Origin: Anaerolineae bacterium
GTDB lineage: Bacteria; Chloroflexota; Anaerolineae; CAZYHC01
Direction of reading: 5' to 3'
Assembly (NCBI GenBank): GCA_034417895.1
Contig: DAOULT010000051.1
Coordinates: 4,996-68,995, forward strand
DNA length: 64,000 bases
This document shows positions 14,575-62,550 of the stretch, piece by piece. Made by a program: the position numbers and the translations under genes. Each line of letters starts with the position of its first letter. The first letter of the stretch is position 1. The notes under the pieces were generated by a model. That model had not been told where the DNA came from. It made no database searches and saw nothing but the letters and a program-made list of their open reading frames with translations.

Positions 14575-14602
14575 ATCGTCCCTCCTCTCTTTGCTTATCT
14601 TG

Positions 14603-18195: not shown

Positions 18196-18197
18196 CC

Positions 18198-19280: not shown

Positions 19281-19380
19281 AGTCAACCTATGCCATGGGC
19301 TATTAGAGTCTAGAGGGGTCTCAAGGCCTGGCCCAGGCCGGGCCGGGCCTTGAGATCTTTTTTCCACTTGTTGCATGGGA

Positions 19381-30994: not shown

Positions 30995-31092
30995 AAGCAA
31001 ATCCTTGTTGGGACTTTTCACCACAAAGGACACCAAGAACACCAGGAATAAAGGCTTTGTGTCCTTCGTGCTCTTTGTGGTTATATCTGTGT
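30995..31092. repeat. Palindromic ~90-bp repeat element (CCACAAAGGACACC...CTTTGTGTCCTTCGTGCTCTTTGTGG...ATCTGTGTTGGCT) at the 5' end of the ATPase gene. It is homologous to an in-frame copy at 61783..61860.
   Basis: Reverse-complement alignment of 31000..31090 with 61783..61860 gives long identical blocks: gagcacgaaggacacaaag and tcctttgtggtgaaaag. Confidence 0.7.
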
Positions 31093-38949: not shown

Positions 38950-39086
38950 TCGTCTATTCCTACCACTATTATACAGGCGAAAGAACCTTTCGTCAAGGGC
39001 GATTTTGGGGGCTGGCCCCTGGCCTTCGGAGGTCGAGGCGGAAATGAGTCTAACAAATCTCTCGGTGTTCTCCGTGCTCTCCGGGG

Positions 39087-42514: not shown

Positions 42515-45394
42515 TTACCTGACCCTCACCTGGCCTAGCAGTATCCGGTCCGCCCTGCTTTCGCTCAGGACGGACAGTCTTTCGCCGCTGGCCGGGTCGT
42601 ATAGCCCGACCTCGATGGTGTACTGGCCCGCTGGCGCCTCGGCCCCGACCGCTAGCTTGTACTCATCGACCACGATCTCACCCTCCAGCCAACTGGTGGT
42701 CGGTCGCCCGGCGGGGATACGATCCTGCTGGCCCCATATCCGGCTTTGCCCATCCAGCAGGTGAACGAAGGCGGTGTAAGAGGTGTCCAGCGGGCGCAAA
42801 GCCTGCCAGTAAAGCGTCAGGGGCAGCGACTCCCCGGCCTGCACCTGCTCTGCGGGCAGATCGTAGCCCAAAAGCGCCACCAGCCCGCCCAGGTCGGCCT
42901 CTATGGGGTGCTGGATTTCGGGCCTCTCGAAGAGCCTGGCCCAACCTTCGACCGGCAGGGTGGTCAGTTCGGCTTCCTGCTCCGTTTCGCTCCCGGCCTT
43001 CAGCGCTACGGTCAGGCGGTACTCCCCCGGCTCGACGGCAGCCGGGACGATGAAATCGTGCCAGCCGCGCAGGATTTCGCCCGCCTGCCAGGCGGTGGTG
43101 GGGTAGCTTTTGCCCGCCGGGGGGGATTCTCGTTCGGCGATGGTTTCGCCCCCTGCATTTTTCAGGCGCATCACCGCCCGATAGTTGGCCGTGGTCTTTT
43201 GCCTGGCCTGCCAGTAAAGCGCCAGACTGATCCTGTCGCCGGGCCGCACCGTCGGCGAGGCTGACAGGTCGTAACCGAGCAGGCGAATACCCTCGCTCAG
43301 GTCTAGCGAAAGAGGGTGCTCTGGCTCGACGGTGGCCGGGTAGAGAGCCGGGGTCACTTCCACAGAGCCGACATCAACTGCCGTTCCCAGGCGCTCCCCG
43401 CTTTCCTCTTCGTACACCAGGAAGCGCAGTTGATAAGCGCCCGGCGGCGTGGCCGGGGCGATGGGCACGAGGTAGTAGTCTATCGTCTTCAGGCCCTTTT
43501 CCCAGCCGGAAGTGCCCCGATAAGCGTTATCCAGCAGGAACTTATCGACCTGGCCGACCACGTGCCCGTTTTCATCGAGCAGCCTGACCGAAGCCTTGTA
43601 ATCCTTTTCGACAGTCCCCTCCCGCTGCCAGTGAGCCATCACCCAGGCTCGTTCTCCAGAAGGCGCCTTTTGTCCATTGACGTCCTCTGCGGGCCAGGCA
43701 GGGCCATAAGCCACGTCGGATAGAGTTAGCGCCTGGCCGAAAGTGACTCCCAGCGGCTCGAAATCGGGCCAGGCGGAAAAATCCACCCCGGCGTAAGGCA
43801 GCCGGTAAGTGACCATCTCGTAGCCCCGGTACTCCTCTTCGGCCACGAACTGGCCGTACTTTTCGAGCAGGAACACGACGTAGCCTTTCAGATTGGCCTG
43901 GTCGTGTTTGGTCACTTTCCAGCGATTGATGAAATGCACGGTGTCTTTGCCCTGGCAGGCGGCGGTTAGCTCGCGGGGTATGGTTTCGTCGTCTATTTCG
44001 AGGTAGCGATAGGCGGCCTGGCCGTGATACAGAAAGTCGATGGTGTAGTTGTGACGCTTTGCCCGGCGGGGGTCCCAGGGCAGGATGAAGACCGCTTTGG
44101 GGTTGGTTTCTCGCTCCATGTGGGCCACCAGGTCAACGGCGTGGCCGTCGAAGGCGTGGTACGGGGCTTCGCTCGCGGCCCAGACCTGGAAATAGTCGTG
44201 ACAGGTAGCCCAAAGCGTGAGGCAAAAAGGCGCAGCCACCAGCACGGGCAGAACCAGCCGGGCCGGAAGACGAACCTTTGCCAGCAGGGGACGGGCGGCA
44301 TCCCATACCACCGCCAGCGACAGGGCCGGGAAGACGTACACCACCGGCAGCGCTCCGATGGCCTTGCGGCAGGAAAGCGGCCCGAAAGAGGATAGCACGC
44401 TGGGCAAGAGCATGATCGCCCACCACGCCAGGCAAAAAAGGTGAGCCGGGCGCCTGATCTGCATCAGGCAGATGAGCAGGCCAGCCCAGAAACAAACGGC
44501 CAGAGCCGGATCGAGCACCGGGCGGCCCGGCAAACCGGCCTCCCAGGAGCTATCGCCCCGCAACCCGAAAGCGGCCAGCGCCCCCACCACGTTGCGGCCC
44601 AAAGCTCCCAGGACGCTGCCCTGGTTGACGATGGGATTGAGGATGGAAACCTGCCCGGCCCGCAGGGTGAAATCTTCGGGGTGCAGCAAAAAGTGGCCGC
44701 CCAACGGAGCGAAAACGAGCAGCGCCACCAGAACGCAAAGGATGAGCAGCCTGAACTGCTTTCGTAAAAGAGCCGCTTCGCTCCCGGCCAGAAGCCACTG
44801 ACCCAAAAAGAAGAAAAGCAACACGAAGGACAAAAACCGCGACGATAAATAAGTGTACATGGAAAGCCCCAGGAAAAACCCGGCCAGGACGAAATCGCGC
44901 CTGCGGCCCACGTTCAAAGCTCGCCACAGGAAGTAGAAGCAGACCGTTTCCAACAGGGGCAGGGTAATGAGCCGGTAGCCGATGCGGCTGTAGCTCACGT
45001 GCCAATAGGAAGTAGCCAGCCCCAAAGCAGTCAGGGCAGCCATCAGGCGCGAGCGCGGCCCACGAAACATCTGGCCGGCCATCAGGTAAGTGGTCAACAC
45101 GGTGGCGGTGCCCACCAGGGCGGCCAGCGTCCGCTGCTCCCGGATGCCGGGGCCGAAGAGGGCGAAGGTCCCGGCCAGCAGGTATTGCCACAGCGGTTCG
45201 CGGCCCGTGGTGCGGGGGAAGAAGATGCGCCACTGGCCGTCCAGCACTTCCACCGCATCCAGGGCGTAAGCGGCCTCGTCACCGCTGAAGCCCGGCGGCG
45301 CGGCGTCCAACTGGTACAGCCGCAGGAAGGCGGCCAGGGCCAGGATGAGCAGCAAAAAGGCCCAGTCCACTTTGTTCGTTGTTTTGGCGCTCAT
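42515..45394 (-). CDS. GT-C fold (GT39/PMT-ArnT-like) polytopic membrane glycosyltransferase with three C-terminal copies of the novel ~115-aa repeat domain (cluster gene a, last gene).
   Basis: True start is ATG 45394 (MSAKTTNKVDWAFLLLILALAAFLRLYQLDAAPPGFSGDEAAYALD...), overlapping the upstream stop (ATGA). The 390-aa N-terminal extension in track ORF 42515..46570 is Arg/Pro-rich read-through. C-terminal repeats ...LLGYDLSASPTVRPGDRISLALYWQA... and ...VALLGYDLPAEQVQAGESLPLTLYWQALRPLDTSYTAFVHLLDGQSRIWGQQDRIPAGRPTTSWLEGEIVVDEYKL..AGQYTIEVGLYDPASGERL. Confidence 0.75.
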   Translation of the reverse strand: MSAKTTNKVDWAFLLLILALAAFLRLYQLDAAPPGFSGDEAAYALDAVEVLDGQWRIFFPRTTGREPLWQYLLAGTFALFGPGIREQRTLAALVGTATVLTTYLMAGQMFRGPRSRLMAALTALGLATSYWHVSYSRIGYRLITLPLLETVCFYFLWRALNVGRRRDFVLAGFFLGLSMYTYLSSRFLSFVLLFFFLGQWLLAGSEAALLRKQFRLLILCVLVALLVFAPLGGHFLLHPEDFTLRAGQVSILNPIVNQGSVLGALGRNVVGALAAFGLRGDSSWEAGLPGRPVLDPALAVCFWAGLLICLMQIRRPAHLFCLAWWAIMLLPSVLSSFGPLSCRKAIGALPVVYVFPALSLAVVWDAARPLLAKVRLPARLVLPVLVAAPFCLTLWATCHDYFQVWAASEAPYHAFDGHAVDLVAHMERETNPKAVFILPWDPRRAKRHNYTIDFLYHGQAAYRYLEIDDETIPRELTAACQGKDTVHFINRWKVTKHDQANLKGYVVFLLEKYGQFVAEEEYRGYEMVTYRLPYAGVDFSAWPDFEPLGVTFGQALTLSDVAYGPAWPAEDVNGQKAPSGERAWVMAHWQREGTVEKDYKASVRLLDENGHVVGQVDKFLLDNAYRGTSGWEKGLKTIDYYLVPIAPATPPGAYQLRFLVYEEESGERLGTAVDVGSVEVTPALYPATVEPEHPLSLDLSEGIRLLGYDLSASPTVRPGDRISLALYWQARQKTTANYRAVMRLKNAGGETIAERESPPAGKSYPTTAWQAGEILRGWHDFIVPAAVEPGEYRLTVALKAGSETEQEAELTTLPVEGWARLFERPEIQHPIEADLGGLVALLGYDLPAEQVQAGESLPLTLYWQALRPLDTSYTAFVHLLDGQSRIWGQQDRIPAGRPTTSWLEGEIVVDEYKLAVGAEAPAGQYTIEVGLYDPASGERLSVLSESRADRILLGQVRVR

Positions 45395-48288
45395 AGCCCG
45401 GCTCCTTCCACTTCTATTTCGCTCAACTGGATGGCGTCTCGTCCGTCGGGGGTAGCCAGCCGTTGACCGCTTACGGCTTCGTACAGGCCGACTTCGAGCC
45501 TGTAACGACCGGGCGGCGCGTCGGACCTGATTTCCAGCCGGTAGTCGTCGGCGATGATTTCGTCCTGCACCCAACTGGTGGTGGGGAAAATCGGCGGGCG
45601 GTCCCGCTGGCCCCAGATGCGGCCCGATTGATCCAGCAGATGCACAAAAACGGTGTAACTGGTATCTGTCTCGCCTGGCGCCCGCCAGTAAAGCCGCAGG
45701 TTCAAAGTCTGGCCTGCTTTCAAGTTCGTCTCTTCTGTTTCGTAGCCCAAAAGCTCCGCCACTCCGCCCAGGTTCGCCCGCACGGGGTGAGCCACAGAGG
45801 GCGGCTCGAAGTTTCTGGGCCGCTCCCGCACCGTGACCGCGCCCAGCGTGGCCTGGCCTTTTTCCTCTTGAACGACTGAAGTCGTTACTACGCCTGCCCC
45901 CAGCAGGGCCACCGTCAACTGGTAATCCCCGCCCGGCAGGCGCCCGCTGACGACCATCTCCTGGCGGTCGCGCACTATCTCCCCTTTCTGCCAGGCGGTG
46001 GTGGGGTAGCGGGGACTGTTCAGCTTTTCGGCCCACACCTGGCCCGACCCGTCCAGGAAGCGCAGGGCTACGGTGTAGTCGCCCTTTACGTCTGTTTCGG
46101 CCCGCCAGTAGAGGACCGGGGCAAGTATTTCGCCGCCCTGAATTTCGCCGCCTTCGAAGTCGTGGCCTAGCAAGGTGATTTCGTCTCCCATTTTCTGCTC
46201 CAGGGCGTACCGCATCGTCAGCTCGTCCGCTGGCGGGAAGGCTTTCGGCCTGACTACCGCCAGGCGGCCCAGCGCCAGGTCGTGGCCCACTCCGGCCTCG
46301 CCCACCGCCTCCAGGGTGCGGCCCGTCTGGAAAGAGTACAGCCCGGCGTGCAAAGTGTACTCTCCCGGCGGAGTGCCCGGCAAAACCTGTAAGTCGTACT
46401 CGTCCACGATGAACGTACCTGGCTGCCAGCGGTCTGTGGCCCAGTAGCCCATCACCGGCAGGCGGTCCACCTGTCCCCAGGGGTGGCCTTCTTCGTCTGC
46501 CAGCCGCAGGTAGACGTTGTAACTTTCGCCCATTTCGGCCAAAGCCTGCCAGTAAAGCGTGACGTGACATTCCCCGCCCGACTCCACCCTGTCCGGGCGC
46601 AAATCGTAGCCTGAAAGTCGCGCCTGTTCGCCGAAGAAGCCGCTTACGGGGTGCGCTATCTGCGCTGGCGGCTCGAACCCGACCACCGGCCCCCGGTAAA
46701 TCCAGGCGTAGTCTATCCCGGCCAGGCGCACCACATGCTCAGCCTGTCGCCCCTGGAAGTAGTCCACCAGCCCGGCCAGAGGCAGGCCGCGTTGGGTCTG
46801 GTTGAGGTAGAAAACGGCGTAGTCCGCGCCCAGGGTTGGCTCGGCGTCGAACAGGTCTACCGTCCGCCCCCGGAAGAAAGGCTCAAACTGGCGGCTGTAC
46901 CAGGCGGCCACCTCCAGCTTCTCGGCCTCTGGTTTGGCGTTCAGGTAGCGGGCCGCCTCGTCCAGTCCCTCGCCCCAGCCGACCGATAGCGCCCAGGGAG
47001 CCAGCCGCCCGCCGCCGACCAGCGGATCGTAGTAAGTGATATAATACGGGAAATGCGGCAGGGCAAAAGCGGCCTGTAAAACCAGGGCGAAGCCACAGAG
47101 TACACCGAGAACACGGAGAGATTTGGCCTTAATCTCTGTGCCCTCTGTGGCTATAAAAAGGTGCCACAGCCCGAAAGCGGCCAGCACGTCCACCGCCGGA
47201 AAAATGGGCAAAAGGTAGCGGTCGCCTTTTTTGTGTCCCACCGTCACCAGCAGAGCGAAGCCCAGGGCGTAAAGCAACAGGGACAGTATGGCCCTTCGAC
47301 TTTCCCCCGCCCGGTTTCTGATCCACAGGAACAGGGCCGCCGCCAGCCCCAACAAAACCGGCGGCGTGCTCCTGAAAAGGAAGCTCACCGGGTAGAAAAG
47401 CGGGCCGGGGTCGGCTCTGGCCTGGCCGAAGAGAAAGGTGCCTTTGGCGTGGGGGGCGAAGGTGGCCGCCCTGGCGATGTCCCACACCGCTTTGATCGCT
47501 CCCAAAGGATCGACCCACAGCACCGGCCACAGAGCCAGCGCCACCAGAGCGGCTGCCAGGCTCCAGATCACGAACTGGCGAAGGCTTGAGCGCCCGCGAT
47601 GAATCAAAGCAACCACGCCCCAGAAGGGCAGGAGAAAAACGGCGGTCGATTTGGTCAAAAAGGCCAGCCCTGCGCACAGCCCCGAAAACACCAGGTAAAA
47701 CAACGAACGGAACAACGTAGAAAGACCCTTTGGGTTTTCAAAATCCAAAGGGTCTGCCAAATGAACGAGCAGGCTCAAAGCCGAAGCGATCATAAAAGTC
47801 GCCACCAGAGCGTCGTGATGAATGAAGCGCGAATGGGCCAGGTAAAAAGGGTCGAAGGCCAGCAGGAGGGCGGCGGCCACCCCCACCCCGGCTCCGAAAA
47901 GCTCCCGGCTCAGCCAGTAAACGGCCACCACGCACAGGGCGGCCAGCAAAACAGTCGGCATCCGCACGGCGGGCATCAGCTCAGGCGGGGCCGGATAGGG
48001 TATGGAATCCAGGAACTCCGCCAGGGGCAGGCCGCGCTGCCAGGCGTAAAGCGTAAGCCCGATGGCCCCTGTCCAGCGGGTGGTCACGGCTGGCCCGGCC
48101 CAACCCGGAAAGCTTTCGGCCAGGTTTCCACGCAGCAGAGCGGCCAGGAATTGGCCTGACCATTGCACCCAGTCCAGCTCGTCGCCGGTCAGAAAGAAGT
48201 CCAAGGCTAACGCTCGTGGCGCGAAGCCTAGCAGGAACAAAACGGCCATCAAAGCGCCTTCGCGCCTCCAATCGTTTCTTTCGCCCAT
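45391..48288 (-). CDS. GT-C fold membrane glycosyltransferase (GT39-like, GDELDWVQW motif) with three C-terminal repeat-domain copies (cluster gene b, paralog of 52088..54928).
   Basis: Start trimmed to ATG 48288 (MGERNDWRREGALMAVLFLLGFAPRALALDFFLTGDELDWVQW...). An alternative is ATG 48249. Three LSGYDL/LLGHDF/LLGYETE...LYW(Q/R)A repeat units. Confidence 0.7.
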   Translation of the reverse strand: MGERNDWRREGALMAVLFLLGFAPRALALDFFLTGDELDWVQWSGQFLAALLRGNLAESFPGWAGPAVTTRWTGAIGLTLYAWQRGLPLAEFLDSIPYPAPPELMPAVRMPTVLLAALCVVAVYWLSRELFGAGVGVAAALLLAFDPFYLAHSRFIHHDALVATFMIASALSLLVHLADPLDFENPKGLSTLFRSLFYLVFSGLCAGLAFLTKSTAVFLLPFWGVVALIHRGRSSLRQFVIWSLAAALVALALWPVLWVDPLGAIKAVWDIARAATFAPHAKGTFLFGQARADPGPLFYPVSFLFRSTPPVLLGLAAALFLWIRNRAGESRRAILSLLLYALGFALLVTVGHKKGDRYLLPIFPAVDVLAAFGLWHLFIATEGTEIKAKSLRVLGVLCGFALVLQAAFALPHFPYYITYYDPLVGGGRLAPWALSVGWGEGLDEAARYLNAKPEAEKLEVAAWYSRQFEPFFRGRTVDLFDAEPTLGADYAVFYLNQTQRGLPLAGLVDYFQGRQAEHVVRLAGIDYAWIYRGPVVGFEPPAQIAHPVSGFFGEQARLSGYDLRPDRVESGGECHVTLYWQALAEMGESYNVYLRLADEEGHPWGQVDRLPVMGYWATDRWQPGTFIVDEYDLQVLPGTPPGEYTLHAGLYSFQTGRTLEAVGEAGVGHDLALGRLAVVRPKAFPPADELTMRYALEQKMGDEITLLGHDFEGGEIQGGEILAPVLYWRAETDVKGDYTVALRFLDGSGQVWAEKLNSPRYPTTAWQKGEIVRDRQEMVVSGRLPGGDYQLTVALLGAGVVTTSVVQEEKGQATLGAVTVRERPRNFEPPSVAHPVRANLGGVAELLGYETEETNLKAGQTLNLRLYWRAPGETDTSYTVFVHLLDQSGRIWGQRDRPPIFPTTSWVQDEIIADDYRLEIRSDAPPGRYRLEVGLYEAVSGQRLATPDGRDAIQLSEIEVEGAGL

Positions 48289-48316
48289 TGGCGTCGTTCG
48301 TCTTGTCCGTTGCGCG

Positions 48317-52087: not shown

Positions 52088-54928
52088 CTATTCCCCACTC
52101 CCTATTTCCACCTCTTCCAGTATAATCCGGTCATCTTGCGCCCCGCCCAAAACAGGCAGCCGTTCCCCGCTGAGCACTTCGTACAGGCCGACGGCCAGGG
52201 TATAGCGGCCCGCCGCAGGCGCCGCCACCTCCCGCGCCTCAATGACCACCTCTCCGACCGACCAGCCAGTGGTGGGCAGCGGCGGCGGGCCATCCTGCTG
52301 AGCCTGAATCTGGCCTTTTTCGTCCAGGAGGTGCACGAAGACGGTGTAAGCAGTTTCCATTTCAGAGAGAGCCTGCCAGTAAAGCGTCAACTGCACGGTC
52401 CTTGCCGGTTGTACCTCCAGGTCGTAGCCCAATAGCGCGACCAGGTTCCCCAGGTTGACTTTCAGCGGGTGTTGTGTGGGCGGCGCTTCAAAAAGCCTCT
52501 CCCGGCTCTGCACCTCCACCCGGCCCAAAGCGACAGGCCCCGATCTTTCCCCCGTCCGACCGTCCGCCAAAGCAATCATCAGGCGATACGCCCCGCCGGG
52601 CACACCGCCAGACACCAGGAAGTCCCGCACGTCGCGCCCGATTTCCCCTTTCTGGCCGGGGAGGGTGGGGCGTTCCTGCCGTTCGCCCCACGACCGGCCT
52701 TCTTCGTCTTCCAGCCACAGGGCGAGCAGGTAGTCCCCTTGCACCTGGCGCCTGGCCCGCCAGTAGAGGGTCAGGGGCAAACGCTGGCCAGAGGAGGCCG
52801 CACCGCCCTCGAAGTCGTAGCCTAGCAGTTCGATTTCGGCGTTCAGGCTGTTTTCCAACTGGTGTTGCATAGCCAGTTCTGCGAGCGTGGGTGGGGAGGA
52901 TGGCTTTGTGACGGTCACCATTCCCGGCGTAAGCCCTCCGCCGAAGCCGGGGCGCGCTCCCCCGTGAAGCTCGGAAACGTTCAACACCCGCCCGCTACCG
53001 TTCGCTGTTTGGAGCGAGTAAAGCCCTACTTCCAGCCGGTACTCTCCCGGCGGAGTGCCGGGCGGAATGAGCGGGGCGTACTCGTCGGTTATAAACATGC
53101 CCGCCCGCCAGTGCAGGGTGCGCCACAGCCCCAGCACCGGCCAGCGGTCCTGTGCGGCCCAGATGCGCCCCTGCTCGTCCACCAGCCGCAGGTAGACGTG
53201 GTAATCTTCCTCCAGGTCTGCCAGGCAGCGCCAATGTAGGGCCAGGCGCAATTTCTGGCCGGAGGCTGCTGGCTCCAGGTCGTAGCCGGAAAGCTCCACC
53301 CGTCCGTCGAAAACGCCGCCCGCGTGATAGCCAGCGACCGGCCCCGACCCAAAGCCGTAAACCGGCCCCCGGTAAAGCCAGGCGTAATCGATGCCCTTGG
53401 CCCGCACCACGTATTCGGGCCGCCGCAGGCCGAAATATTCGAGCAACTCCGCGCTCGGATAGCCGCGCTGAAGCTGGTTGACATAAAAAACGGTGTAGTC
53501 GGCTTTTAGAGCCGCGCCCTCTTGGGCCAGGCCGACGACCTGGCCTCGGAAAAAAGCGGCCAACTGGCGGCTGAACCAGGAAGCGGCCACCAGTCCACCG
53601 CCTGTCTCGTTCGCTGTTTCGTTCAGGTAGCGGCCCGCCTGGTCCAACCCCTCGCCCCAGCCGATCAATAGAGCCTGCCGCGCCAGATGCGTCCCTCCCA
53701 TAGCCGGATTGTAATAGCTCAGGTAATAGGGATAATGCGGCAGGCTGAGGCCGACCTGCACCAGCACGCAGCCAAAAGCGAACCCAACAGCGAACAAATG
53801 CGAGAGGTTCAGAACTGGCCGAAACTTCGAGCTTAGAGCCTCAAGCGATCTCCAGAGTCCCCACCCGGCCAGCAGGTGCAGCGTGGGGAAAACGGCCAGC
53901 AGGTAGCGGTCAAGCTTCTTGGCGCCGAGCGAAATGAAAATGGCGAAGAGCAGGACGTAAATCGCCAAAACGCCCAGGCTCCATTTTCTTTCCCTTTTTT
54001 CCCGTCGCCAGGCGAGCAAAGCGCCCGCCAGCCCCAACAGTACAGGCGGCGTGGCCCGAAATAGAAAAACGAGGGGATAAAACCCCAGGCCGGGGTCGTC
54101 CACGATGCGGCCCAGGAAATACTGCCGATGGCCGGCTTCGGCCAGGTCGAGCGAACCGCCCAAAGTCAGCCACAAAGTACCCAGCGGCCTGACCCACATG
54201 GCGGGCCAGACCAATCCCACCGCCAGAGCCATCGCCCCGCCAAAAATCGCCAGGCTCTTCACTGTCCGCTTCCGCCCTGCGATCAACATCCCGCAGCCAA
54301 AAGGGAGCAGAAACAAAGACGGAGACTTGCTCAAAAAGGCCAGTCCTGCCGTGACCCCCGACAGGGTGAGCCAGAACACCCCTTTTGCCCCATTATCAGC
54401 GCCATTTCGCAAATAGACGGCCAGGCTCAAAACGGAAACGGTGGCAAAGGTGGCCGCCAGAGCGTCTTGATGCAGGATGCGCGAGTGGGCCAGGTAAAAA
54501 GGGTCGAAAGCGGCCAGCAAGGCCCCCAGCAGCGCTGCCTTTTCCCCGACCAGCAGCCGACCCCACTGGTAGAGCAAAGCCACTCCCAGGGCAGTCACCA
54601 AGGCGATAGTCAGCCGCATGGCAGCCAGCGTTTCCGGGTTCACGGCTGGCGCAGAGTCCCGGCCCGTCAGCAGCAGCCCCAAAGCGCCGCTCCACATGGT
54701 GGTCACGCCGGGGTGAAAGGTCTGGGCGGTATCGGCCCAGCGTCCTTCTTGCAAAGCGGCCAGGAATTGGCTGGCCCATTGCACCCAGTCCGACTCGTCC
54801 CCGGCCATAAAAGCCGAAAGTCCCGCCAGACGCGGTGCCAGGGCTGCCAGGAAAACTAAACACGAATAAACGAATGGGCGAAGGCTGCTACCATCAACTG
54901 GCTTACCTTCATTTACGCCTTCACTCAA
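52088..54928 (-). CDS. GT-C fold membrane glycosyltransferase (GT39-like, GDESDWVQW) with three C-terminal repeat domains (cluster gene e).
   Basis: Paralog of gene b. The track start at 54928 is a TTG overlapping the upstream stop by 8 nt, and there is no in-frame ATG for 41 codons, so the start codon is uncertain. Repeat units LSGYDLEPAASGQKLRLALHW..., IELLGYDFEGGAASSGQRLPLTLYWRA..., VALLGYDLEVQPARTVQLTLYWQALSEMETAYTVFVHLLDEKGQIQAQQDGPP. Confidence 0.7.
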   Translation of the reverse strand: MSEGVNEGKPVDGSSLRPFVYSCLVFLAALAPRLAGLSAFMAGDESDWVQWASQFLAALQEGRWADTAQTFHPGVTTMWSGALGLLLTGRDSAPAVNPETLAAMRLTIALVTALGVALLYQWGRLLVGEKAALLGALLAAFDPFYLAHSRILHQDALAATFATVSVLSLAVYLRNGADNGAKGVFWLTLSGVTAGLAFLSKSPSLFLLPFGCGMLIAGRKRTVKSLAIFGGAMALAVGLVWPAMWVRPLGTLWLTLGGSLDLAEAGHRQYFLGRIVDDPGLGFYPLVFLFRATPPVLLGLAGALLAWRREKRERKWSLGVLAIYVLLFAIFISLGAKKLDRYLLAVFPTLHLLAGWGLWRSLEALSSKFRPVLNLSHLFAVGFAFGCVLVQVGLSLPHYPYYLSYYNPAMGGTHLARQALLIGWGEGLDQAGRYLNETANETGGGLVAASWFSRQLAAFFRGQVVGLAQEGAALKADYTVFYVNQLQRGYPSAELLEYFGLRRPEYVVRAKGIDYAWLYRGPVYGFGSGPVAGYHAGGVFDGRVELSGYDLEPAASGQKLRLALHWRCLADLEEDYHVYLRLVDEQGRIWAAQDRWPVLGLWRTLHWRAGMFITDEYAPLIPPGTPPGEYRLEVGLYSLQTANGSGRVLNVSELHGGARPGFGGGLTPGMVTVTKPSSPPTLAELAMQHQLENSLNAEIELLGYDFEGGAASSGQRLPLTLYWRARRQVQGDYLLALWLEDEEGRSWGERQERPTLPGQKGEIGRDVRDFLVSGGVPGGAYRLMIALADGRTGERSGPVALGRVEVQSRERLFEAPPTQHPLKVNLGNLVALLGYDLEVQPARTVQLTLYWQALSEMETAYTVFVHLLDEKGQIQAQQDGPPPLPTTGWSVGEVVIEAREVAAPAAGRYTLAVGLYEVLSGERLPVLGGAQDDRIILEEVEIGSGE

Positions 54929-57392
54929 TGATTGTCACCTCTTGCAAAAAGACGCTATTGCCCTGCGGATTGCCGGCCTGGTCAAAAACTTCCAGGCGTT
55001 GGCCGCTTTCGGGTTGGTAAAGCCCGGCCAGCAGGGGATGGCGGCCAGGCGGGGTATCGGCCCCGACCGGCACCCGATAACGCTCGATCACAGGGTGGCC
55101 GGGCCGCCAGTCCGACGTCCGGTAAAAGCCGCACAGGGGCAGCCCATCCCGCTGGCCCCAAATACGCTCGTTGTTGCGCTCGTCTTCCAGGTGGATGAAA
55201 ACGCTGTAATCCTTTTTCATGGTGGTCAGCGCTTCCCAGTAAAGGGTCAGAACCAGGCTCCCCCCTGGCTGCGCCTTCTCGCTCTCCAGATCGTAGCCCC
55301 GCAGGCGGATACGGTGGCCCAGGTCGGCGGTCAGAGGATGAGCAGGGGTCGGCCGCCGGGCGACGGCCTCCGGCGTCGTGCCCCGATCAAAAGCGGATTC
55401 CGCCTCCCGCGCCTCGCAGGTTATCGAGGAGGCTTCGGCCGGGGGATGGCGGTAAAGGCGCAGTTCTGGCTCGCCGTTCACCGTGACCACGCCCATCGGC
55501 GCGTAGCCTTCAGGCAGGGAGACTCCGAGCCGCTCGTCTCGCACCCGGTCGGCCATGATGTAGTACTCGGCGTCAGGGCAGTAGGAGCGTATGGCGCCCC
55601 GCGCATACCAGGCCGTGATCTCGCCCTCCTCGTTGCTGTTGTAATCGCCCCGCAAGACCCCCTCGGCGTAAAGCTGCCCGATGGCCTTCCACCCGGCCCG
55701 ATAAGGGAAGCCAAAGAAAGCGGCGGGAGGCAGGTGGCGGTAAGCTGTCCAGTAGAGAGAGCTTCTGTGGGCCGGATAAGTCCAGATGTATTGCGGTTCG
55801 CACTGGATAAAGGCCAGGTAGATGTATCCGGCAAAGACCAGGTACAAAAGGATAAACACGCCCGTAGTAACGATTTCAATCGTTGTCTTCGCGGTTGGAC
55901 GACTAAAGTCGTCACTACAAACCCGCAGGCGCTGCCACATATCATCCAGCCCCAGTCCGGCCATGAGCATCCAGGCCGGGAAGAAGGTGTAAACGTGAGT
56001 CAGGGGATGCGCCACCAGAAAGGTGTAGAGCAGGAAAGGGACCCCAAACCAGATCAGGCAGGTCATCCATTCCACCGAAAAGAAGGACGCCCGGCCAGCC
56101 CTCAGACGCTTAACCACCGCCCAGGCCAGGGCCAGAATAATGAAAACAAAATAGTAAGTCGAGTTGTAGACCGTGCTCTGCAAAAAAGTAAAGCCCAGGT
56201 TGTTGTGGAGAAGCCCGCTCCCCAGGCGCCGGCCTACCAGATAGCGGTAAGTGGTGGTCGCCTGGGGATCGAGCCAGAAGGGGAGATAGAAAAGGCCGCT
56301 CAAGACCAGGAATATTGCCAGCGCTAAGACGTAGCCCCGCAGCTCAACGCCTTCCCCCTTCCACTTCTTTCGGCTTTTCCAGGCCAGGTAAAGGATGGCG
56401 GGCAGCACCAGAGCGGCATCGTAATGGGCCAGAAGGCCGCAGGCGGCAAACAGCGCCCCAGGAACCTGATAGCGCCCGGCCCCTTCAGCGTAGAAACGGT
56501 AGTAACAGTAAAGGGCCAGGCCCATCATCAAAAAAACCAGGCTTTGATATTGCACGATGCGGGCGAAGCCCACGAAATAGCCGTTGATGGCGGCCAGGGA
56601 TGCGGCCAGCCACCCGACACGCAGGCTGAACATGCGCCCTCCCAGGAGATAGACCACTCCTACCGCCAGCAGACCGGCCAGGGCGAAAGGAAAACGCGCT
56701 CCCGCCTCGTCGATCCGGCCCGTGAGAAGCCAGCAGGCGGCAGGGAGCAGAATCTCGGCCGGGCCTTTGCCGTGGGCGAAAAGGGCGTCGTCCCAGCCCT
56801 CGATGACCTGGGCGGCTCTTAACATAACCAGGGCTTCGTCGCCCTGAAACTCGGAATAGCCCAGGGAGGCGAAACGAAAGAACGAAGCCAAAACTATAAC
56901 CACCAGGAGCACGCTGACACGGATTTTGGTCACGGATATCACGGATTCCACCATCGATCGTGCCTTGAGCCGTGAAATCCGTGACCCTAATCTGTGTTGG
57001 CTCTTTCCCATCCACAGCGCCAGGGCCAGAGGAGCAAGGATAAGCGCATCGCAGACGATAAGCAGTGAAACGGAGGTCAGGCGACCGGGCAGATAATGTA
57101 GAAGCAGCGCGCCCACCAGCGAGAGGGCGTAACTGGCTCCACAGCCGAGCACAATTCTCTCTATCAGGTCGGTCTCGGCGGCCAGGGGGATAAGCTCCAG
57201 CAGAGCGAAGCCGGGCAGGATGCAGAGCAACAGGACGGCGCTCGCGTAACGCACGGGCCAAAAATCAACGGCCAGCAGAACCGCGTTAGCCCCGACCAGA
57301 GCCAGGACGAGCCAGAAAAACCCTCCCGGCCTCCAACCCCGACCATCGCCTCCCGACCGTATATTATTTCTTCCCATTCCAATTTCTGCCAT
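54921..57392 (-). CDS. GT-C fold membrane glycosyltransferase (GT39-like, FQGDEALVMLRAAQ motif) with one C-terminal repeat domain (cluster gene f, paralog of 59798..62179).
   Basis: ATG at 57392. C-terminal AHPLTADLGHRIRLRGYDLESEKAQPGGSLVLTLYWEALTTMKKDYSVFIHLEDERNNERIWGQRDGLPLCGFYRTSDWRPGHP...PGRHPLLAGLYQPESGQRL. Contains an in-frame AATCCGTG palindromic element at 56925..57002. Confidence 0.75.
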   Translation of the reverse strand: MAEIGMGRNNIRSGGDGRGWRPGGFFWLVLALVGANAVLLAVDFWPVRYASAVLLLCILPGFALLELIPLAAETDLIERIVLGCGASYALSLVGALLLHYLPGRLTSVSLLIVCDALILAPLALALWMGKSQHRLGSRISRLKARSMVESVISVTKIRVSVLLVVIVLASFFRFASLGYSEFQGDEALVMLRAAQVIEGWDDALFAHGKGPAEILLPAACWLLTGRIDEAGARFPFALAGLLAVGVVYLLGGRMFSLRVGWLAASLAAINGYFVGFARIVQYQSLVFLMMGLALYCYYRFYAEGAGRYQVPGALFAACGLLAHYDAALVLPAILYLAWKSRKKWKGEGVELRGYVLALAIFLVLSGLFYLPFWLDPQATTTYRYLVGRRLGSGLLHNNLGFTFLQSTVYNSTYYFVFIILALAWAVVKRLRAGRASFFSVEWMTCLIWFGVPFLLYTFLVAHPLTHVYTFFPAWMLMAGLGLDDMWQRLRVCSDDFSRPTAKTTIEIVTTGVFILLYLVFAGYIYLAFIQCEPQYIWTYPAHRSSLYWTAYRHLPPAAFFGFPYRAGWKAIGQLYAEGVLRGDYNSNEEGEITAWYARGAIRSYCPDAEYYIMADRVRDERLGVSLPEGYAPMGVVTVNGEPELRLYRHPPAEASSITCEAREAESAFDRGTTPEAVARRPTPAHPLTADLGHRIRLRGYDLESEKAQPGGSLVLTLYWEALTTMKKDYSVFIHLEDERNNERIWGQRDGLPLCGFYRTSDWRPGHPVIERYRVPVGADTPPGRHPLLAGLYQPESGQRLEVFDQAGNPQGNSVFLQEVTIIE
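56925..57002. repeat. Palindromic short repeat element of the AATCYGTG family (ggtcacggatatcacggattcc...gccgtgaaatccgtgaccctaatctgtgttggct), in-frame inside GT-C gene f.
   Basis: Inverted arms read directly. Related copies are at 28900..28965 and 29195..29240 (inside GT-C gene 28530..30149). The element shares the 3' tail ATCTGTGTTGGCT with the element at 31076..31092. Confidence 0.6.
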
Positions 57393-57407: not shown

Positions 57408-59801
57408 TCACTTTTCCCCGAATCTTTCAACCCTCACCGGGCCAAGCAGAATGTGGTCGCTTCCATCCACAGTCAGCCGTTGGCCGCTTTGGGCTTCGTA
57501 TAGCCCTACCTCGACGGCATATTCCCCGGCTGGAGCATCGGGCGGGGCGGCGATCTCGTACACGTCCTGGATGAACTCGCCCTCTACCCACAGACTGGTG
57601 GGCGCCGCGCCTCGGACGGGCGGGTTGTCTTTTCCTCCAAAAACTCGCCCCTCCTCATCGAGCAGGTGGGTGAAAACGGTGTAATCCTGGTCCATCCCGG
57701 CCAGGGCCTGCCAGTAGAGGGTCAGGCGCAGGGCGTCGCCGGCCCTAACTGTGGCCGCCAGATCGTAACCCACCAGGCGCACCACTCCGCCCAGGTCAGC
57801 CCCTACCTGGTGCTGCACTTTTGGCCGGGCGAAAATCCGCCGGGCCTCGATACCCCTGGGCATCCCGCACCGTTTGCCGAATTCCATCAGCCGGAGCGCT
57901 GTGCCGTTGGCCGGCAGCCTGGGAGCCAGGGCCGCATCCCGCACCTGGGGCTTCAGGCGGCGGCCCACTTCCCAGGGGTCGGTCCCATCCACCACGCCCA
58001 GGGCAATGCCGTAGCGCGCCCGGTCGCGGGTGTACCACGACAGGGTATCAGCCACCACGCGCACCGTTTCCCCCGGCTGCCAATGACTGGTCGGGTGCCA
58101 GACCGTCACCGGCTGAGGCTGGTCGGTGCTGCCTGTGACGTTCCCTTCCTCGTCCAGAAGGTAGAGGGCGATCAGATAATCCCGCTCCACCTCCTGCAAG
58201 GCCGTCCAGTACAGGTTGAAGTTGACTTCTTCTGCGCGGTTATAGAGAACGTCGAAGCCCAGAAAACGCAACTCGGAGCCGAAATCGACCGTCATGGGAT
58301 ACTGGATGGCGGGGTTGTCCACCGTGACGAAGCTATAGAAATCGCGAGATAAAGGTTGATGCGGCGCGCCCCGGCGGAGCAAGACGTAACCGTCCTGGCT
58401 GGCTATCACCCCGAAATCATCTGCTGTCTCGATCCAGTCCTGGAGAGAGCCGTGCACGTTGTCCTTGTTGGGCAGGGTGGATACGTCCAGGAACACGTAT
58501 TCTATATCGTCGCGGTGGACGACCTGGTAAACCCGTCGGCGCTGGCTGACGTGGGGGTTGAGGTTGATCTGGGCGCTCAGGACGGCATCCGGCGGGATCA
58601 TTTCGATGAACTTCTGGGCCAGGCGGTGGTGGGCGGTGACGGGCGGCCAGCGGAAGGGGGCGGCCAGCGGTGAGAAACCACGACAGTAGTGATAGCCCAC
58701 ACTGACCACCAGCACGAGGGCCGACAGGAGATGGACCAACCTCCGAGAATCGAGTTTCAGCCAGCGGCTCAAGGTTTCGCTCAGGGCTTCAAGGCCATAG
58801 ACGCCAGAGACCAGGACAAAGGGCACGATGGGGGCCGCATAGTGAAACTCCTCCAGGCGGTGCATGAAGGCGTCCTCGCTGAGCAGGTTGACGGCCAGGG
58901 AGGGCAGGGCCAATACCAGGGTCAGAGGGCTTAACAGGGACAGGAAGGCCAGGGGCAAAAGCAAGCCTTTCAGATAGTTTAAGGCCCCGGCTTTCGACAA
59001 TTGATCGACCACGACCCCCGGCTGGCCGAAGATGGTTTTCACCATCTGCCAGGGGGTGTCGCCCAGGTAGGCGTAGCGCCTGACGTGGATGTTAGCTCCC
59101 ATCGGGCTGAAGGGCGGGGTGATGACGAAAACGGCCAGAAAGAACCACAACCCCGCCCCCAGGACGGTCAGCCATCCGGCTCGCCGCTCCCGCTGCACGA
59201 CCAGAATGTACAGCCCCATGGCCGCCACCAGCAGACACATATCCTCCTTGCAGCTCATGGTCAAGATGGCGAACAGGGCGAAAGGACGATAAGCCCTCTT
59301 TTGCAGGAAATAGAAAGCGGCCAAGAGACAGGGAACGGCCAGGGTTACAGCGTGGAAGTCGAACAGATTGGCCGCTTCCAAGGCGGGGAAAAGCAGATAG
59401 GCGGCGGCGAAGGCCAGCGCGGCAAAATCGCTCTTCAGCCTGTCCCTGGTCAGCAGAAAGGCAGGCCAGGCTCCCAGAGCCAAGACCACCGTTTGCAGCA
59501 CCAGCAGAGTCAGCGGGCTGGAATAGAGTAGATAAGTCAACGAGACGACCAACAGGATAGGCTCAAAGTGCAGCGCCAGGCGGCTCTCCAGGCCGTCCAT
59601 CTCGATGCCGTCCATGTTGGTGAAGCAGAAGAGGCAGCCGTGCAGGGTGTTATAAACCGCCTGATCGACGTTGCCCAGGTCGTAGCCGTGAGTTTCGAAC
59701 ACGGCGTGGCGGTGGATGGACAGGGCGCTGAAGGTCACGGCGTAGAGGACGACCAGCAGCCAGAGCGCAGCCACAAAAAAGCGAGAGGGATCGCTTTTCA
59801 T
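57408..59801 (-). CDS. DUF2079-like polytopic membrane protein (GT-C-like putative glycosyltransferase) with two C-terminal repeat domains (cluster gene g).
   Basis: N-terminus ...SIHRHAVFETHGYDLGNVDQAVYNTLHG... resembles DUF2079 (from recollection, not certain). C-terminal LRFLGFDVLYNRAEEVNFNLYWTALQEVERDYLIALYLLDEEG... and VRLVGYDLAATVRAGDALRLTLYWQALAGMDQDYTVFTHLLDEEGRVFGGKDNPP...AGEYAVEVGLYEAQSGQRL. ATGA overlap with gene h. Confidence 0.65.
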   Translation of the reverse strand: MKSDPSRFFVAALWLLVVLYAVTFSALSIHRHAVFETHGYDLGNVDQAVYNTLHGCLFCFTNMDGIEMDGLESRLALHFEPILLVVSLTYLLYSSPLTLLVLQTVVLALGAWPAFLLTRDRLKSDFAALAFAAAYLLFPALEAANLFDFHAVTLAVPCLLAAFYFLQKRAYRPFALFAILTMSCKEDMCLLVAAMGLYILVVQRERRAGWLTVLGAGLWFFLAVFVITPPFSPMGANIHVRRYAYLGDTPWQMVKTIFGQPGVVVDQLSKAGALNYLKGLLLPLAFLSLLSPLTLVLALPSLAVNLLSEDAFMHRLEEFHYAAPIVPFVLVSGVYGLEALSETLSRWLKLDSRRLVHLLSALVLVVSVGYHYCRGFSPLAAPFRWPPVTAHHRLAQKFIEMIPPDAVLSAQINLNPHVSQRRRVYQVVHRDDIEYVFLDVSTLPNKDNVHGSLQDWIETADDFGVIASQDGYVLLRRGAPHQPLSRDFYSFVTVDNPAIQYPMTVDFGSELRFLGFDVLYNRAEEVNFNLYWTALQEVERDYLIALYLLDEEGNVTGSTDQPQPVTVWHPTSHWQPGETVRVVADTLSWYTRDRARYGIALGVVDGTDPWEVGRRLKPQVRDAALAPRLPANGTALRLMEFGKRCGMPRGIEARRIFARPKVQHQVGADLGGVVRLVGYDLAATVRAGDALRLTLYWQALAGMDQDYTVFTHLLDEEGRVFGGKDNPPVRGAAPTSLWVEGEFIQDVYEIAAPPDAPAGEYAVEVGLYEAQSGQRLTVDGSDHILLGPVRVERFGEK

Positions 59802-62179
59802 TTAACCATCACCTCTTGCAACAGCACGCTGGTCCCCTGTGGGTTCCCGGCCAGGTCGAGGACGTCGAGGCGCTGTCCGCTGACAGGCTCATAGAGGCCG
59901 ACGGTCAACGGATATCGGCCCGGCGGCGTTTCGGGGGAGATGGGCAAGCGGCGGCGGTCAACGATTACCGTGCCAGGCCGCCAGGCGTTGGTTGGGTAGG
60001 TGCGGCAGACGGGCACGCCGTCGCTCTGGCCCCAGACGCGGTCTGATTCCAGGTGGCTGAAGACGTAGTAGTTAGTGCTCAGGCGTTTTTCGACCTGCCA
60101 GTAAAGCGCCAGCCGCAGGCTACCAGCCGGGTGGGCGCGGCTGGCGTCCAGGTCGTAGCCCAAAAACTGCACCTGGGCAGAAGGGCCTTTCAGCGTGATG
60201 TTCAGAGGGTGGTCAATGGCTGGCTTCCCAACCATGTTTCGGGATGTGATCCGGCGGTCGAAGTCGGCTTCGTAATCCCCGGCGGCGAGGGGGCCAAAAT
60301 CGGCCTGGGCCTGGGGATGTCGGTAGATGCGCAGCCTGGGTTTGCCCCCGACCAGCACGCTGCCAGCCGACACGTACTCTTCCGGCACGTCGCCGATGGG
60401 TTGTTCGTCTTGCACGTTTTCGGCTATCAGGTAGTAGTCGGCGGCCTCTTCGGGGCAGGCGCGGGGCGCGTGGCGCGTATACCAGAAGGTGATGACGTCC
60501 TCCTCGTTGCTCAGGTAATCGCCTCGTAGCGCCCCGGTGCGATAAAGTTCGCCCACCGCCTTCCACCCGGCGCGGTAAGGAAAGCCGAAATAACCTTCCG
60601 GGGGCAGCTCGTCGTAAACTGTCCAGTAGAAGTCATTTTTGTGGGCCGGGTAGGTGCGTTTGTATTCCGGGTCGTGCCAGACGAAGACCATAAAGATGTA
60701 CCAGGCAAAGACCAGGTAGAGGGCGACGAAAACCGCCCGCCCGGCCATGGCCCATCTAATCCTCCCCAACAGCCTGTCAATCTCATCCAGGGCCAGCCCG
60801 GCCAGCAGCGTCCAGCCCGGGAAAAGGGTGTAAACGTGGGTCAGCGGTTTGGCGACGAAAAAAAGGTAAAACGCGGCGGGTACAGCCAGCCAGATGAAGC
60901 ACGCTGTCCGACCCACATCAAGCCTGGAAAGAGCAGCCAGCACCGCCCAACCCAAAAGCAGAGGCAGAAAGACCAGGTAGTAAGTCGAATTGTAAACCGT
61001 GCTCAGCACGAAGAAAGAAGGCAGGTTGTTCACAGGCAGGCTGTGGCCTAGCCTTTTGCCCTCCAGGTAGCCATAGGTGGACGCAAACTGCTGGTCGGCC
61101 ACGAAGGGCGGGTAAAAAAGCAGCGGCACGACCACTGCCAGAAGCAGGCAAAGGGCCAGCCATTTTTTGCCCCCGGCCCACTGCCCGGCCAGCAGGTAAA
61201 GCGCCGCCGGAAGAATCAGCACGGTATCATAGTGGGTCAGCAGGCCGAAGCCCAAAAACAGTCCGCTCAATAAAGCGTGACCCCCGGCCCGGTTGGCGCG
61301 GAAACGGTAAGCGCACCACAAAGCCAGCCCGCTCATAGCCAGCACCAGGCTTTGATACTGCACCACCCGCCCAAAGCCGACAAAGTAGCCATTGACCGCC
61401 AGAAGCAGTCCGGCCAGAAATCCTACCCGCTGGTTGAACATGCTGCGGCCTAGCAGGTAGAGGGCCGCCACACCCAACAGGGCGGCCAGGGCGAAAGGCA
61501 TACGCGCCCCCCATTCCGTGATCCGCCCTGTGAGCAGCCAGGTGGAGGCCGGGATCAGGATCTCTGCCGGGCCTTTAGCGTGCGTGAACAGGACGTGATC
61601 CTGTCCCTCGAGGGCCTGGGCCGCCTTGAACATAACCACCGCTTCGTCGCCTTGGAATTCGGAATAACCCAGGAAAACCAGGCGCGGCACAGCAGCAACC
61701 ACCAGCAAGACCACCAGCGACCAGTTACAATCGGAGGCCAGGCGGCTGGCTCCCTTCATAACCGCGAAGAGCACGAAGGACACAAAGTCTTTATCTTCAC
61801 ACTCCTGGTGTTCTTTGTGCTCTTTGTGTCCTTTGTGGTGAAAAGCTCTGATCAGGAGCAAGGGCGCAAGGGTCAGCAGGTCGCAGGCCAGGAGGATGGA
61901 GGCCACGCTCATGGGGCCAGGCAGGTAGTGCACAATCAGCGTGGTCAGCGACGAAAGAACGTAACTGAGGCCGCCGCCGAGCGTCAGACGCTCCACCCCA
62001 CTGACATCCCCGGCCAGCTCCATGAGGGCCAGGCCGGGCAGGAAGAAGAGCAGCAGAACGGCGCTCAGATAGCGTAAGACCGCCAGATCGGTGAGAATTA
62101 TGAAAACATTAGCCGCCGCCAGGGACCCAATAAGCCACAGATGCTTGCGTTTCCAAAGAAGATACGCAGGAGGAGCCAT
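59798..62179 (-). CDS. GT-C fold membrane glycosyltransferase (GT39-like, FQGDEAVVMFKAAQ) with one C-terminal repeat domain (cluster gene h).
   Basis: Start trimmed to ATG 62179 (the track start at 62182 is TTG). Paralog of gene f. C-terminal IDHPLNITLKGPSAQVQFLGYDLDASRAHPAGSLRLALYWQVEKRLSTNYYVFSHLESDRVWGQSDGVPVCRTYPTNAWRPG...PGRYPLTVGLYEPVSGQRL. Carries an in-frame palindromic element at 61783..61860 encoding HKGHKEHKEHQECEDKDFVSFVLFAVMK. Confidence 0.75.
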   Translation of the reverse strand: MAPPAYLLWKRKHLWLIGSLAAANVFIILTDLAVLRYLSAVLLLFFLPGLALMELAGDVSGVERLTLGGGLSYVLSSLTTLIVHYLPGPMSVASILLACDLLTLAPLLLIRAFHHKGHKEHKEHQECEDKDFVSFVLFAVMKGASRLASDCNWSLVVLLVVAAVPRLVFLGYSEFQGDEAVVMFKAAQALEGQDHVLFTHAKGPAEILIPASTWLLTGRITEWGARMPFALAALLGVAALYLLGRSMFNQRVGFLAGLLLAVNGYFVGFGRVVQYQSLVLAMSGLALWCAYRFRANRAGGHALLSGLFLGFGLLTHYDTVLILPAALYLLAGQWAGGKKWLALCLLLAVVVPLLFYPPFVADQQFASTYGYLEGKRLGHSLPVNNLPSFFVLSTVYNSTYYLVFLPLLLGWAVLAALSRLDVGRTACFIWLAVPAAFYLFFVAKPLTHVYTLFPGWTLLAGLALDEIDRLLGRIRWAMAGRAVFVALYLVFAWYIFMVFVWHDPEYKRTYPAHKNDFYWTVYDELPPEGYFGFPYRAGWKAVGELYRTGALRGDYLSNEEDVITFWYTRHAPRACPEEAADYYLIAENVQDEQPIGDVPEEYVSAGSVLVGGKPRLRIYRHPQAQADFGPLAAGDYEADFDRRITSRNMVGKPAIDHPLNITLKGPSAQVQFLGYDLDASRAHPAGSLRLALYWQVEKRLSTNYYVFSHLESDRVWGQSDGVPVCRTYPTNAWRPGTVIVDRRRLPISPETPPGRYPLTVGLYEPVSGQRLDVLDLAGNPQGTSVLLQEVMVK
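61783..61860. repeat. 78-bp (26-codon) palindromic repeat element inserted in-frame in a loop of GT-C gene h. It is homologous to the element at 30995..31092.
   Basis: gagcacgaaggacacaaagtctttatcttcacactcctggtgttctttgtgctctttgtgtcctttgtggtgaaaag. Internal inverted repeats cacaaag/ctttgtg. It replaces the loop region that in paralog f holds a different repeat element. Confidence 0.7.
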
Positions 62180-62550
62180 CAATGCTGTCTTTGCTCCGGG
62201 AGTCGGAAGTCCACCACCGAGCCTAGCAGGCTCTCGTAGCCCAGGCCGGTGGTGAAGATCATAGCCAATTGCACGATGGTAGGCTCGGCGTGGTTCAACT
62301 GCACCTGACGATAAACCACGGGCAGCAAAACTATCCCGCTGATAGCGCTGACGATCAACGAACGCGGGGAGAAAAAGCAGCCTCCCCGCTGCAAGGACCT
62401 CAGGTAATTGTTGGCGATGATGCCGACCACCAGCGCCAGATAGATGTACAACTGCCAGTCCGTGGTAAGAGCGTGGGCGGCTGTTGCCGCCTCGGTTCCT
62501 GGGCCTGCCGCCGCCCCGCTCAGATCGAAGTAATTAAGCAGCCAATCCAT
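62179..62550 (-). CDS. Small 4-TM membrane protein heading the GT-C array (possibly GtrA-like / lipid-linked sugar translocation accessory). Function unassigned.
   Basis: ATG at 62550 (MDWLLNYFDL...) with a strong RBS agaagggggg 10 nt upstream. The track start at 62559 is TTG. The stop overlaps the start of gene h by 1 nt (TGATG). Confidence 0.5.
   Translation of the reverse strand: MDWLLNYFDLSGAAAGPGTEAATAAHALTTDWQLYIYLALVVGIIANNYLRSLQRGGCFFSPRSLIVSAISGIVLLPVVYRQVQLNHAEPTIVQLAMIFTTGLGYESLLGSVVDFRLPEQRQH

Follow-up and report, generated by a model that had tools for sequence, protein, structure and literature searches.

An interspersed hairpin repeat of 9-nt units, probably inserted in-frame into the linker of a GT-C glycosyltransferase gene of an Anaerolineae bacterium

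For about 25 years it has been known that repeats can insert in-frame into genes. The RPEs (Rickettsia palindromic elements, RPE-1 to RPE-8) have a length of 105-146 bp and, as they are summarized in PMC2229807, occur only in Rickettsia (Ogata et al. 2000; Claverie and Ogata 2003). In-frame inserts of 20-50 aa derived from RPEs, repetitive extragenic palindromic sequences (REPs) or miniature transposable elements with inverted repeats (MITEs) were found in conserved genes of Rickettsia, Opitutus, Thauera, Neisseria and enterobacteria (PMC3733652, PMC2229807). Here, we describe a short palindromic repeat, element A, which lies in-frame in a gene for a GT-C glycosyltransferase (gene h) of an Anaerolineae bacterium (Chloroflexota). 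The gene is located in a stretch of 64,000 nt (assembly GCA_034417895.1, contig DAOULT010000051.1, positions 4,996 to 68,995), which is called the window in the following. Element A likely represents an interspersed hairpin repeat of the REP/MITE-like kind, one copy of which landed in a permissive protein linker and is read through. An original prediction, made from the sequence of the window, had already proposed a palindromic interspersed repeat in this gene, and the open frame, a 75-bp gap in the orthologues and four related copies at non-homologous loci support it. It also regarded such RPE-like behaviour as unusual; it is less so than was supposed, since REPs and MITEs lying in-frame within genes have been described from several phyla (PMC3733652, PMC2229807).

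Gene h (59798..62179, minus strand) codes for a PMT_2 (GT-C) glycosyltransferase of 793 aa (PMT_2 E-value 2e-17), which is 100% identical to the database protein P0001. It consists of an N-terminal 4-helix membrane domain, a linker, the GT-C core and a C-terminal beta domain. Element A spans positions 61758..61845 (88 nt, minus strand), and the open reading frame (ORF; 59798-62182, minus strand) stays open across it. An extent of 78 bp from 61783 to 61860 had been proposed before. The element is indeed present there, but its left arm begins about 25 nt earlier and positions 61846-61860 are ordinary coding sequence. On the plus strand, element A reads ATAACCGCGAAGAGCACGAAGGACACAAAG-TCTTTATCTTCACACTCCTGGTG-TTCTTTGTGCTCTTTGTGTCCTTTGTGGTGAAAAG. 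Its arms are facing inverted arrays of 9-nt units, CTTYGTGNN on one side and CACRAAG on the other. A repeat search identified three direct units with 9-nt spacing (61802-61837) and inverted arms of 27 nt (61761-61787 and 61813-61839) with 74% complementarity, which rises to 94% in a core of 16 nt. Tandem Repeats Finder reported a period of 9 with 3.3 copies at 61808-61837. The layout of the elements is REP-like, with inverted arms of 23-27 nt and a spacer of 16-25 nt. No stop codon occurs in the arms in any frame; element A as a whole is open in three of six frames, and whole elements in general in three to four. The GC content of the elements is 0.44-0.51, compared to 0.587 for the window.

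A real hairpin potential, the prediction of which had been suggested, is shown by folding for element A and for a second copy, element B. The better-folding RNA strand of element A reaches -34.4 kcal/mol (z -5.0) and that of element B -30.5 kcal/mol (z -4.2), while the complementary strands have z-scores of about -2.1. With DNA parameters the z-scores are -3.6 for element A and -3.0 for element B. Folding is strand-asymmetric, as G-U pairs favour one strand of both elements.

Element A resembles the RPEs in several respects. As described in PMC2229807, these are palindromic interspersed repeats which occur in intergenic regions and in-frame in conserved genes, lie in a tolerated part of the protein and are absent from orthologues. 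Element A likewise has a long stem-loop potential and is an in-frame insert in a conserved gene which is absent from two orthologues. The elements described here are, however, shorter (71-88 nt against the 105-146 bp of RPEs) and belong to an Anaerolineae genome, and RPEs are not known to be built from tandem 9-nt units. Element A is an RPE analogue and not a member of the family; size, host and unit structure set it apart, and a relationship in sequence is not expected. The GTAG/CGTC REPs and REP dimers (Di Nocera et al. 2013, PMC3733652) as well as the REPINs also consist of two inverted arms of about 25-35 nt which form a hairpin. GTAG/CGTC REPs are chiefly extragenic, often located near gene ends and now and then in-frame (20-30 amino acids), and several types occur per genome (PMC3733652), which is similar to the situation described here. 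In contrast to these REPs, the arm ends of element A carry neither a GTAG nor a CGTC tag, and the arms are arrays of 9-nt units instead of a single imperfect palindrome. REP/REPIN systems have, elsewhere in the genome, a gene for a cognate REP-associated tyrosine transposase (RAYT, a Y1 transposase) which is flanked by REPs; no such gene was seen in the 64-kb window. MITEs which carry ORFs, like the 107-bp form of the Correia element, ERIC and YPAL (Delihas 2007/2008, PMC2229807), share the terminal inverted repeats and the long stem-loop. Their stop-free forms fuse into ORFs and some give rise to hydrophobic segments (PMC2229807). At 100-170 bp they are larger; TA target-site duplications are usual and a parent insertion sequence is known or suspected, whereas neither a duplication nor a parent insertion sequence was seen in the window.

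Evidence for an insertion comes from the orthologues P0002 and P0003, the nearest homologues of h, which belong to the Anaerolineae metagenome-assembled genomes (MAGs) GCA_041862455.1 and GCA_964646625.1 and are 82% and 80% identical to h at aligned positions. Both are without element A, and their DNA is colinear with the window except for one gap of 75 columns. The net insert in h is 75 bp or 25 codons, one fewer than the 26 codons that had been counted, and the segment is not carried by all relatives, a comparison which the original prediction had named as a check. P0002 and P0003 are sisters (85% identical), and therefore they alone give no polarity of gain versus loss. For the three sequences, a single loss is as parsimonious as a single gain, so that the segment could also be an ancestral part of the linker which was lost in the common ancestor of P0002 and P0003, with element B as a secondary derivative. 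As far as sequence comparison can tell, the direction is settled by the outgroup P0004, by the short state of most homologues and by the likeness of element A to copy B. The linker of P0004 is short, as in most homologues; about half of the homologues are without an insert, and between the HYxPG and EFQGDE anchors the median length in 83 homologues is 62 residues, compared to 83 in h. An ancestral segment is also difficult to reconcile with the modal linker length of these homologues and with a DNA palindrome of 9-nt periodicity whose ends are common to unrelated loci in other genomes. Furthermore, its GC content is below that of the host and its structural confidence in the protein model is low. 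Ancestry of the segment is therefore considered very improbable. On present evidence, element A appears as an insertion into gene h.

Related copies were found at three other, non-homologous loci. Element B (31014..31084, plus strand, 71 nt) is a reverse-complement copy which fills the spacer between a gene for an HlyD-family membrane-fusion protein and an ABC transporter ATPase gene, 11 nt past the stop codon of the former and about 19 nt ahead of the ATG of the latter. Such a copy on the opposite strand had been recognized before, with an extent of 30995..31092 which is too wide on both sides. Elements A and B have the 19-mer GAGCACGAAGGACACAAAG and the 16-mer CCTTTGTGGTGAAAAG exactly in common, for which 0.02 and 0.38 matches are expected by chance with up to three mismatches. 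CTTYGTGNNCTTYGTG has seven matches in the window, every one of them within elements A and B (0.06 expected). Element A corresponds to element B plus one more 9-nt unit and 8 loop nt. The third copy is located in the orthologue of gene f, a paralog of h, on contig L001 of a related MAG and the fourth in an intergenic region of a soil contig (L124). An alignment of the four copies has 47 invariant columns, mostly at both ends (CTTTTCACCACAAAGGACAC ... TAAAGNCTTTGTGNCCTTCGTGCTCTTNGNGGTTAT), while the centre is variable in sequence and length. All four carry the terminal inverted repeats ACCACAAAG ... CTTTGTGGT, and the element ends read CTTTTCACCAC... and ...GTGGTTAT.

These copies also bear on the question whether the element originated on site, when a 9-nt motif was amplified by strand slippage and template switching gave the inverted arm. 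Arrays with variable numbers of 9-nt units are found across many phyla, and among the matches listed in the scan described below 45% have an inverted partner; the copies of the A family likewise differ in unit number. However, the elements A and B and the copies in the L001 f-orthologue and on L124 agree beyond the unit itself, namely in the order of unit variants, in the loop start TAAAG and in the termini CTTTTCACCAC and GGTTAT. This agreement argues for a common template rather than independent local growth. In addition, the empty site of the orthologues contains no seed 9-mer from which an array could have grown. A local origin of element A has thus little probability.

We propose that element A belongs, as one copy, to a small family of non-autonomous interspersed repeats, the hairpin of which would be formed by inverted 9-nt arrays. 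The copy would have entered the segment of h that codes for the linker joining the GT-C core to the N-terminal 4-helix domain, in the lineage of the window and after its split from the closest sequenced relatives. The family may have spread by trans-mobilisation of the REP/MITE kind, and later changes may have occurred in 9-nt units which keep the frame. Between copies, changes run in multiples of 9 or 3 nt (element A versus B; element D, described below, versus its L001 orthologue). Gene h would have survived because the insert of 75 bp is a multiple of 3, the arms are stop-free and the linker is permissive, and the insert may be a near-neutral passenger. Several observations weigh against this explanation, besides the equal parsimony of gain and loss mentioned above. 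A Pfam scan of 41 ORFs of the 64-kb window revealed no gene for a transposase, RAYT included. The A subfamily has only two copies within the window, and a scan of JGI metagenomes with the exact subfamily core gave a single match (L124). No target-site duplication is visible at the junctions of element A, where the flanks are too diverged for an exact placement of the junctions. The Logan assembly of SRR14802572 has the identical insert in h, but it may share its reads with the MAG and is possibly not independent. Finally, translation through element A is predicted from the open frame.

Element A codes for about residues 112-141 of the 793-aa protein (FHHKGHKEHKEHQECEDKDFVSFVLFAV). According to this prediction, protein h would gain about 25 residues, with a stretch rich in His, Lys and Glu ahead of a short hydrophobic one. 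An AlphaFold2 model of h, computed with 14 homologues, has a predicted template modelling score (pTM) of 0.82 and a mean predicted local distance difference test score (pLDDT) of 78. The longest stretch with pLDDT below 50 covers residues 117-150 and with it most of the residues coded by the element. It is flanked by helices at residues 92-116 and 153-168, the second of which precedes the invariant YSEFQGDE loop. The low confidence of the model in this region suggests a structurally permissive linker. The acidic loop that follows the first core helix is on the periplasmic side in GT-C enzymes of the PMT/ArnT type. Since the transmembrane helix after the linker leads to the EFQGDE loop, which is taken as this periplasmic DE loop, the linker of h is probably cytoplasmic. 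The K/R/H-rich inserts in the linker fit a position on the cytoplasmic side.

The same linker contains unrelated repeats in distant GT-C homologues, which were confirmed at the DNA level in three cases and had been missed in the original prediction. These are TTTCCAG tandem arrays (L125, 415-564), a GC-rich palindrome with a folding energy of -93 kcal/mol over 162 nt (L126, 855-1016) and tandem arrays of the heptamer (CATTCGT)n, translated as VIRHSSF repeats (L127, 801-1010). Because an altered number of heptamer copies shifts the frame, phase variation is conceivable for glycosyltransferases of the L127 type. Of the 83 linker cores, with 2,408 residues in total, 6 contain periodic peptides, compared to 13 of the 83 proteins elsewhere (66,728 residues), so that their density is approximately 13-fold in the linker core.

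Gene h belongs to a row of at least seven PMT_2 genes and one DUF2079 gene, and in-frame hairpins occur in three GT-C genes of the window within 15 kb. Those outside of gene h had not been noticed before. Gene f (54921..57392, minus strand, 823 aa) is a PMT_2 paralog of h and contains element C (56917..56997, minus strand), a hairpin of ATCCGTG 9-mers which is in-frame at the linker position matching that of element A (peptide ...QHRLGSRISRLKARSMVESVISVTKIRV...). Its RNA folds with -51.3 kcal/mol (z -6.3). The loop of f had been described as completely different from that of h. The sequence is indeed another one, but it is itself a hairpin repeat of like architecture. In the L001 f-orthologue, this linker position holds the CTTTGTG-type element of the A/B family after the remnant half of an ATCCGTG element, and this combination of two element types indicates that the site was hit repeatedly and that elements decay in-frame. 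Element D (47091..47152, minus strand) is a hairpin of CTCYGTG 9-mers which is in-frame in a third PMT_2/PMT glycosyltransferase gene (45391..48300, minus strand; the start codon is not fixed) and codes for the peptide IATEGTEIKAKSLRVLGVLCGF. The L001 orthologue has this element as well, in a version with 27+9+3 nt more. We do not regard element D as a proven insertion, as it shows no net insertion versus the paralogs of the window and is in-frame element sequence only. The same gene contains a near-perfect palindrome of 33 nt (47723..47755, minus strand; GACCCTTTGGGTTTT / AAAATCCAAAGGGTC), which is in-frame as well (DPLDFENPKGL). This palindrome is unique in the window and absent from the L001 orthologue and from the paralogs. 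The mechanical ORF at 42515-46570, with 1351 aa, shares about 1.2 kb with the 3' part of the adjacent PMT_2 gene. A start near 45400, where the numbering of the PMT_2 domain fits, is probably the real one.

The repeated occurrence of such elements in one linker raises the possibility that the hairpins are retained for a function. They could cause a pause of translation, after the N-terminal domain and before the GT-C core, which aids membrane insertion, act in the processing or stability of the mRNA, provide an internal start, for which the ATG of ...AVMKGAS at the 3' end of element A is a candidate, or form a linker of variable length by 9-nt slippage. A hairpin or repeat is present in the linker of h, of f and of the L001 f-orthologue, and other repeats are present in distant homologues. 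The strand asymmetry caused by G-U pairs suggests a structure at the RNA level, and the indels have lengths which are multiples of 9 or 3 nt. On the other hand, the occupants of the linker are unrelated to each other (9-mer hairpins, a GC-rich palindrome, heptamer arrays), for which tolerance is a better explanation than a specific function. P0002, P0003 and about half of the homologues do without any insert, and in genes h and f the strand that folds better is antisense to the gene. The internal ATG is not preceded by a Shine-Dalgarno sequence. A scan of the window at Rfam gathering thresholds was passed by tRNA only and assigned no family to the elements; E-value scans of elements A and B gave only noise (at most 18 bits, compared to cut-offs of 45-98 bits). 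Retention for a function is therefore unlikely, although it has more in its favour than an ancestral segment or a local origin, and insertion of a passenger repeat into a tolerant linker remains the preferred explanation.

For a wider view, arrays of the type (CTTYGTGNN)3 were searched in one genome per GTDB species, which revealed at least 120 loci. Among the matches listed are Chloroflexota, Planctomycetota, Acidobacteriota, Verrucomicrobiota, Desulfobacterota, Proteobacteria, Cyanobacteria, Bacteroidota and, as an archaeal match, a Methanothrix MAG, with more than 10 phyla in total. The following numbers also refer to the matches listed. An inverted partner is located within 160 nt of 45% of the arrays, and the usual array end is ...GTG-GT(G/T/A)AA. 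Only 17% of the arrays lie in frames without a stop for 60 or more codons on each side, compared to 65% of random positions of the same loci. This depletion indicates that the arrays are basically extragenic and that intragenic copies are surviving exceptions. Most of the 17% are spurious frames in high-GC DNA, and only L010, L079 and L015 look truly coding. L010 (1100-1200) is a GT4 glycosyltransferase gene of Kiritimatiellae with an in-frame CTTTGTG hairpin (DSATKNTKNTKKTLWPLCSLW) and a GERGMGN repeat. L079 (4608-4677) codes for a CDF cation-efflux protein, in which a His-rich loop (HEAHEAHEA...) is formed from a (CACGAAGCG)n array. In viral contigs of IMG/VR, (CTTYGTGNN)3 is likewise present at at least 120 loci. 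Some high-GC viral contigs among the matches listed contain 5-6 arrays per 13 kb, beside other arrays of short units and often just upstream of gene starts.

It is possible, though at present doubtful, that 9-nt units ending in GTG (CTTYGTG, CTCYGTG, ATCCGTG and others) represent an undescribed repeat class which spans several phyla and which its codon-length period and stop-free arms would render intrinsically translatable, with the probably cytoplasmic linker of this GT-C subfamily of Chloroflexota as a preferred site of landing or expansion. A search of one literature library found no paper which describes or names such a class of 9-mer hairpins, which is no proof of novelty. If the class exists, it would offer a general route from non-coding repeats to new loop or helix segments of membrane proteins, like His/Lys-rich stretches or hydrophobic FVSFV stretches. 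Two further loci show other arrangements of short units. At L001 5880-5990, an intergenic region upstream of a Fur gene, a CTCAGCG-type array abuts an ATCCGTG-type array, so that differing unit flavours stand side by side. At L087 6500-7600, seven tandem units of about 155 nt, each with a CACGAAG/CTTCGTG hairpin and an identical 25-nt tail, have a satellite-like appearance.

With element A, the RPE-like tinkering by which a DNA repeat, selfish or structural, is made part of a protein is extended to the Chloroflexota and to a repeat family whose modular build is unusual. Compared to the known cases, what is added is the clustering of in-frame hairpins in GT-C genes, a linker which absorbs repeats and the 9-mer architecture across phyla. 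As the linker repeatedly absorbs unrelated repeats and three GT-C genes with hairpins are found within 15 kb, this GT-C family is a convenient natural system to study how membrane proteins tolerate or exploit repeat-derived peptides. The elements are also of importance for annotation, since copies which are open in several frames lead to spurious N-terminal extensions and to odd low-complexity segments. An example is the ABC transporter ATPase gene next to element B (30146..30994, minus strand), the mechanical ORF of which runs through element B to a GTG at 31042. The resulting in-frame extension (V/M)FLVSFVVKSPNKDLL is encoded by the element. It is spurious, as had been supposed, because residue 24 already marks the beginning of the ABC_tran domain (Pfam) if the count is made from the ATG at 30988; the true start is likely this ATG or that at 30994. 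Upstream of element B, the HlyD gene (31096..32418, minus strand) is preceded by a gene for a MacB-type permease (MacB_PCD/FtsX, 32481-34715). A role of element B as an intrinsic terminator was set aside, as the hairpin lacks a T-run behind it on the transcribed strand.

Some minor observations concern other regions of the window. Element E (39059..39086, plus strand), located just past the 3' end of a TPR/GAF gene, is half an array of CTCYGTG 9-mers in degenerate form. It was rejected as a fifth hairpin, since it folds like shuffled sequences (z about 0). Between the genes for an aldehyde ferredoxin oxidoreductase and a peptidase M1, about 1 kb (14580-15640) is without a convincing ORF. This region contains hairpins at 14897-14974, with AATCCGT motifs, and at 15003-15089 as well as a 23/46-nt tandem repeat at 15120-15245. 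For about 220 residues at the N-terminus, the products of two neighbouring ABC permease genes at 17164-19502 (BPD_transp_1) have no Pfam match, and the ORF overlap is 120 nt; wrong start codons or extra domains could be the reason.

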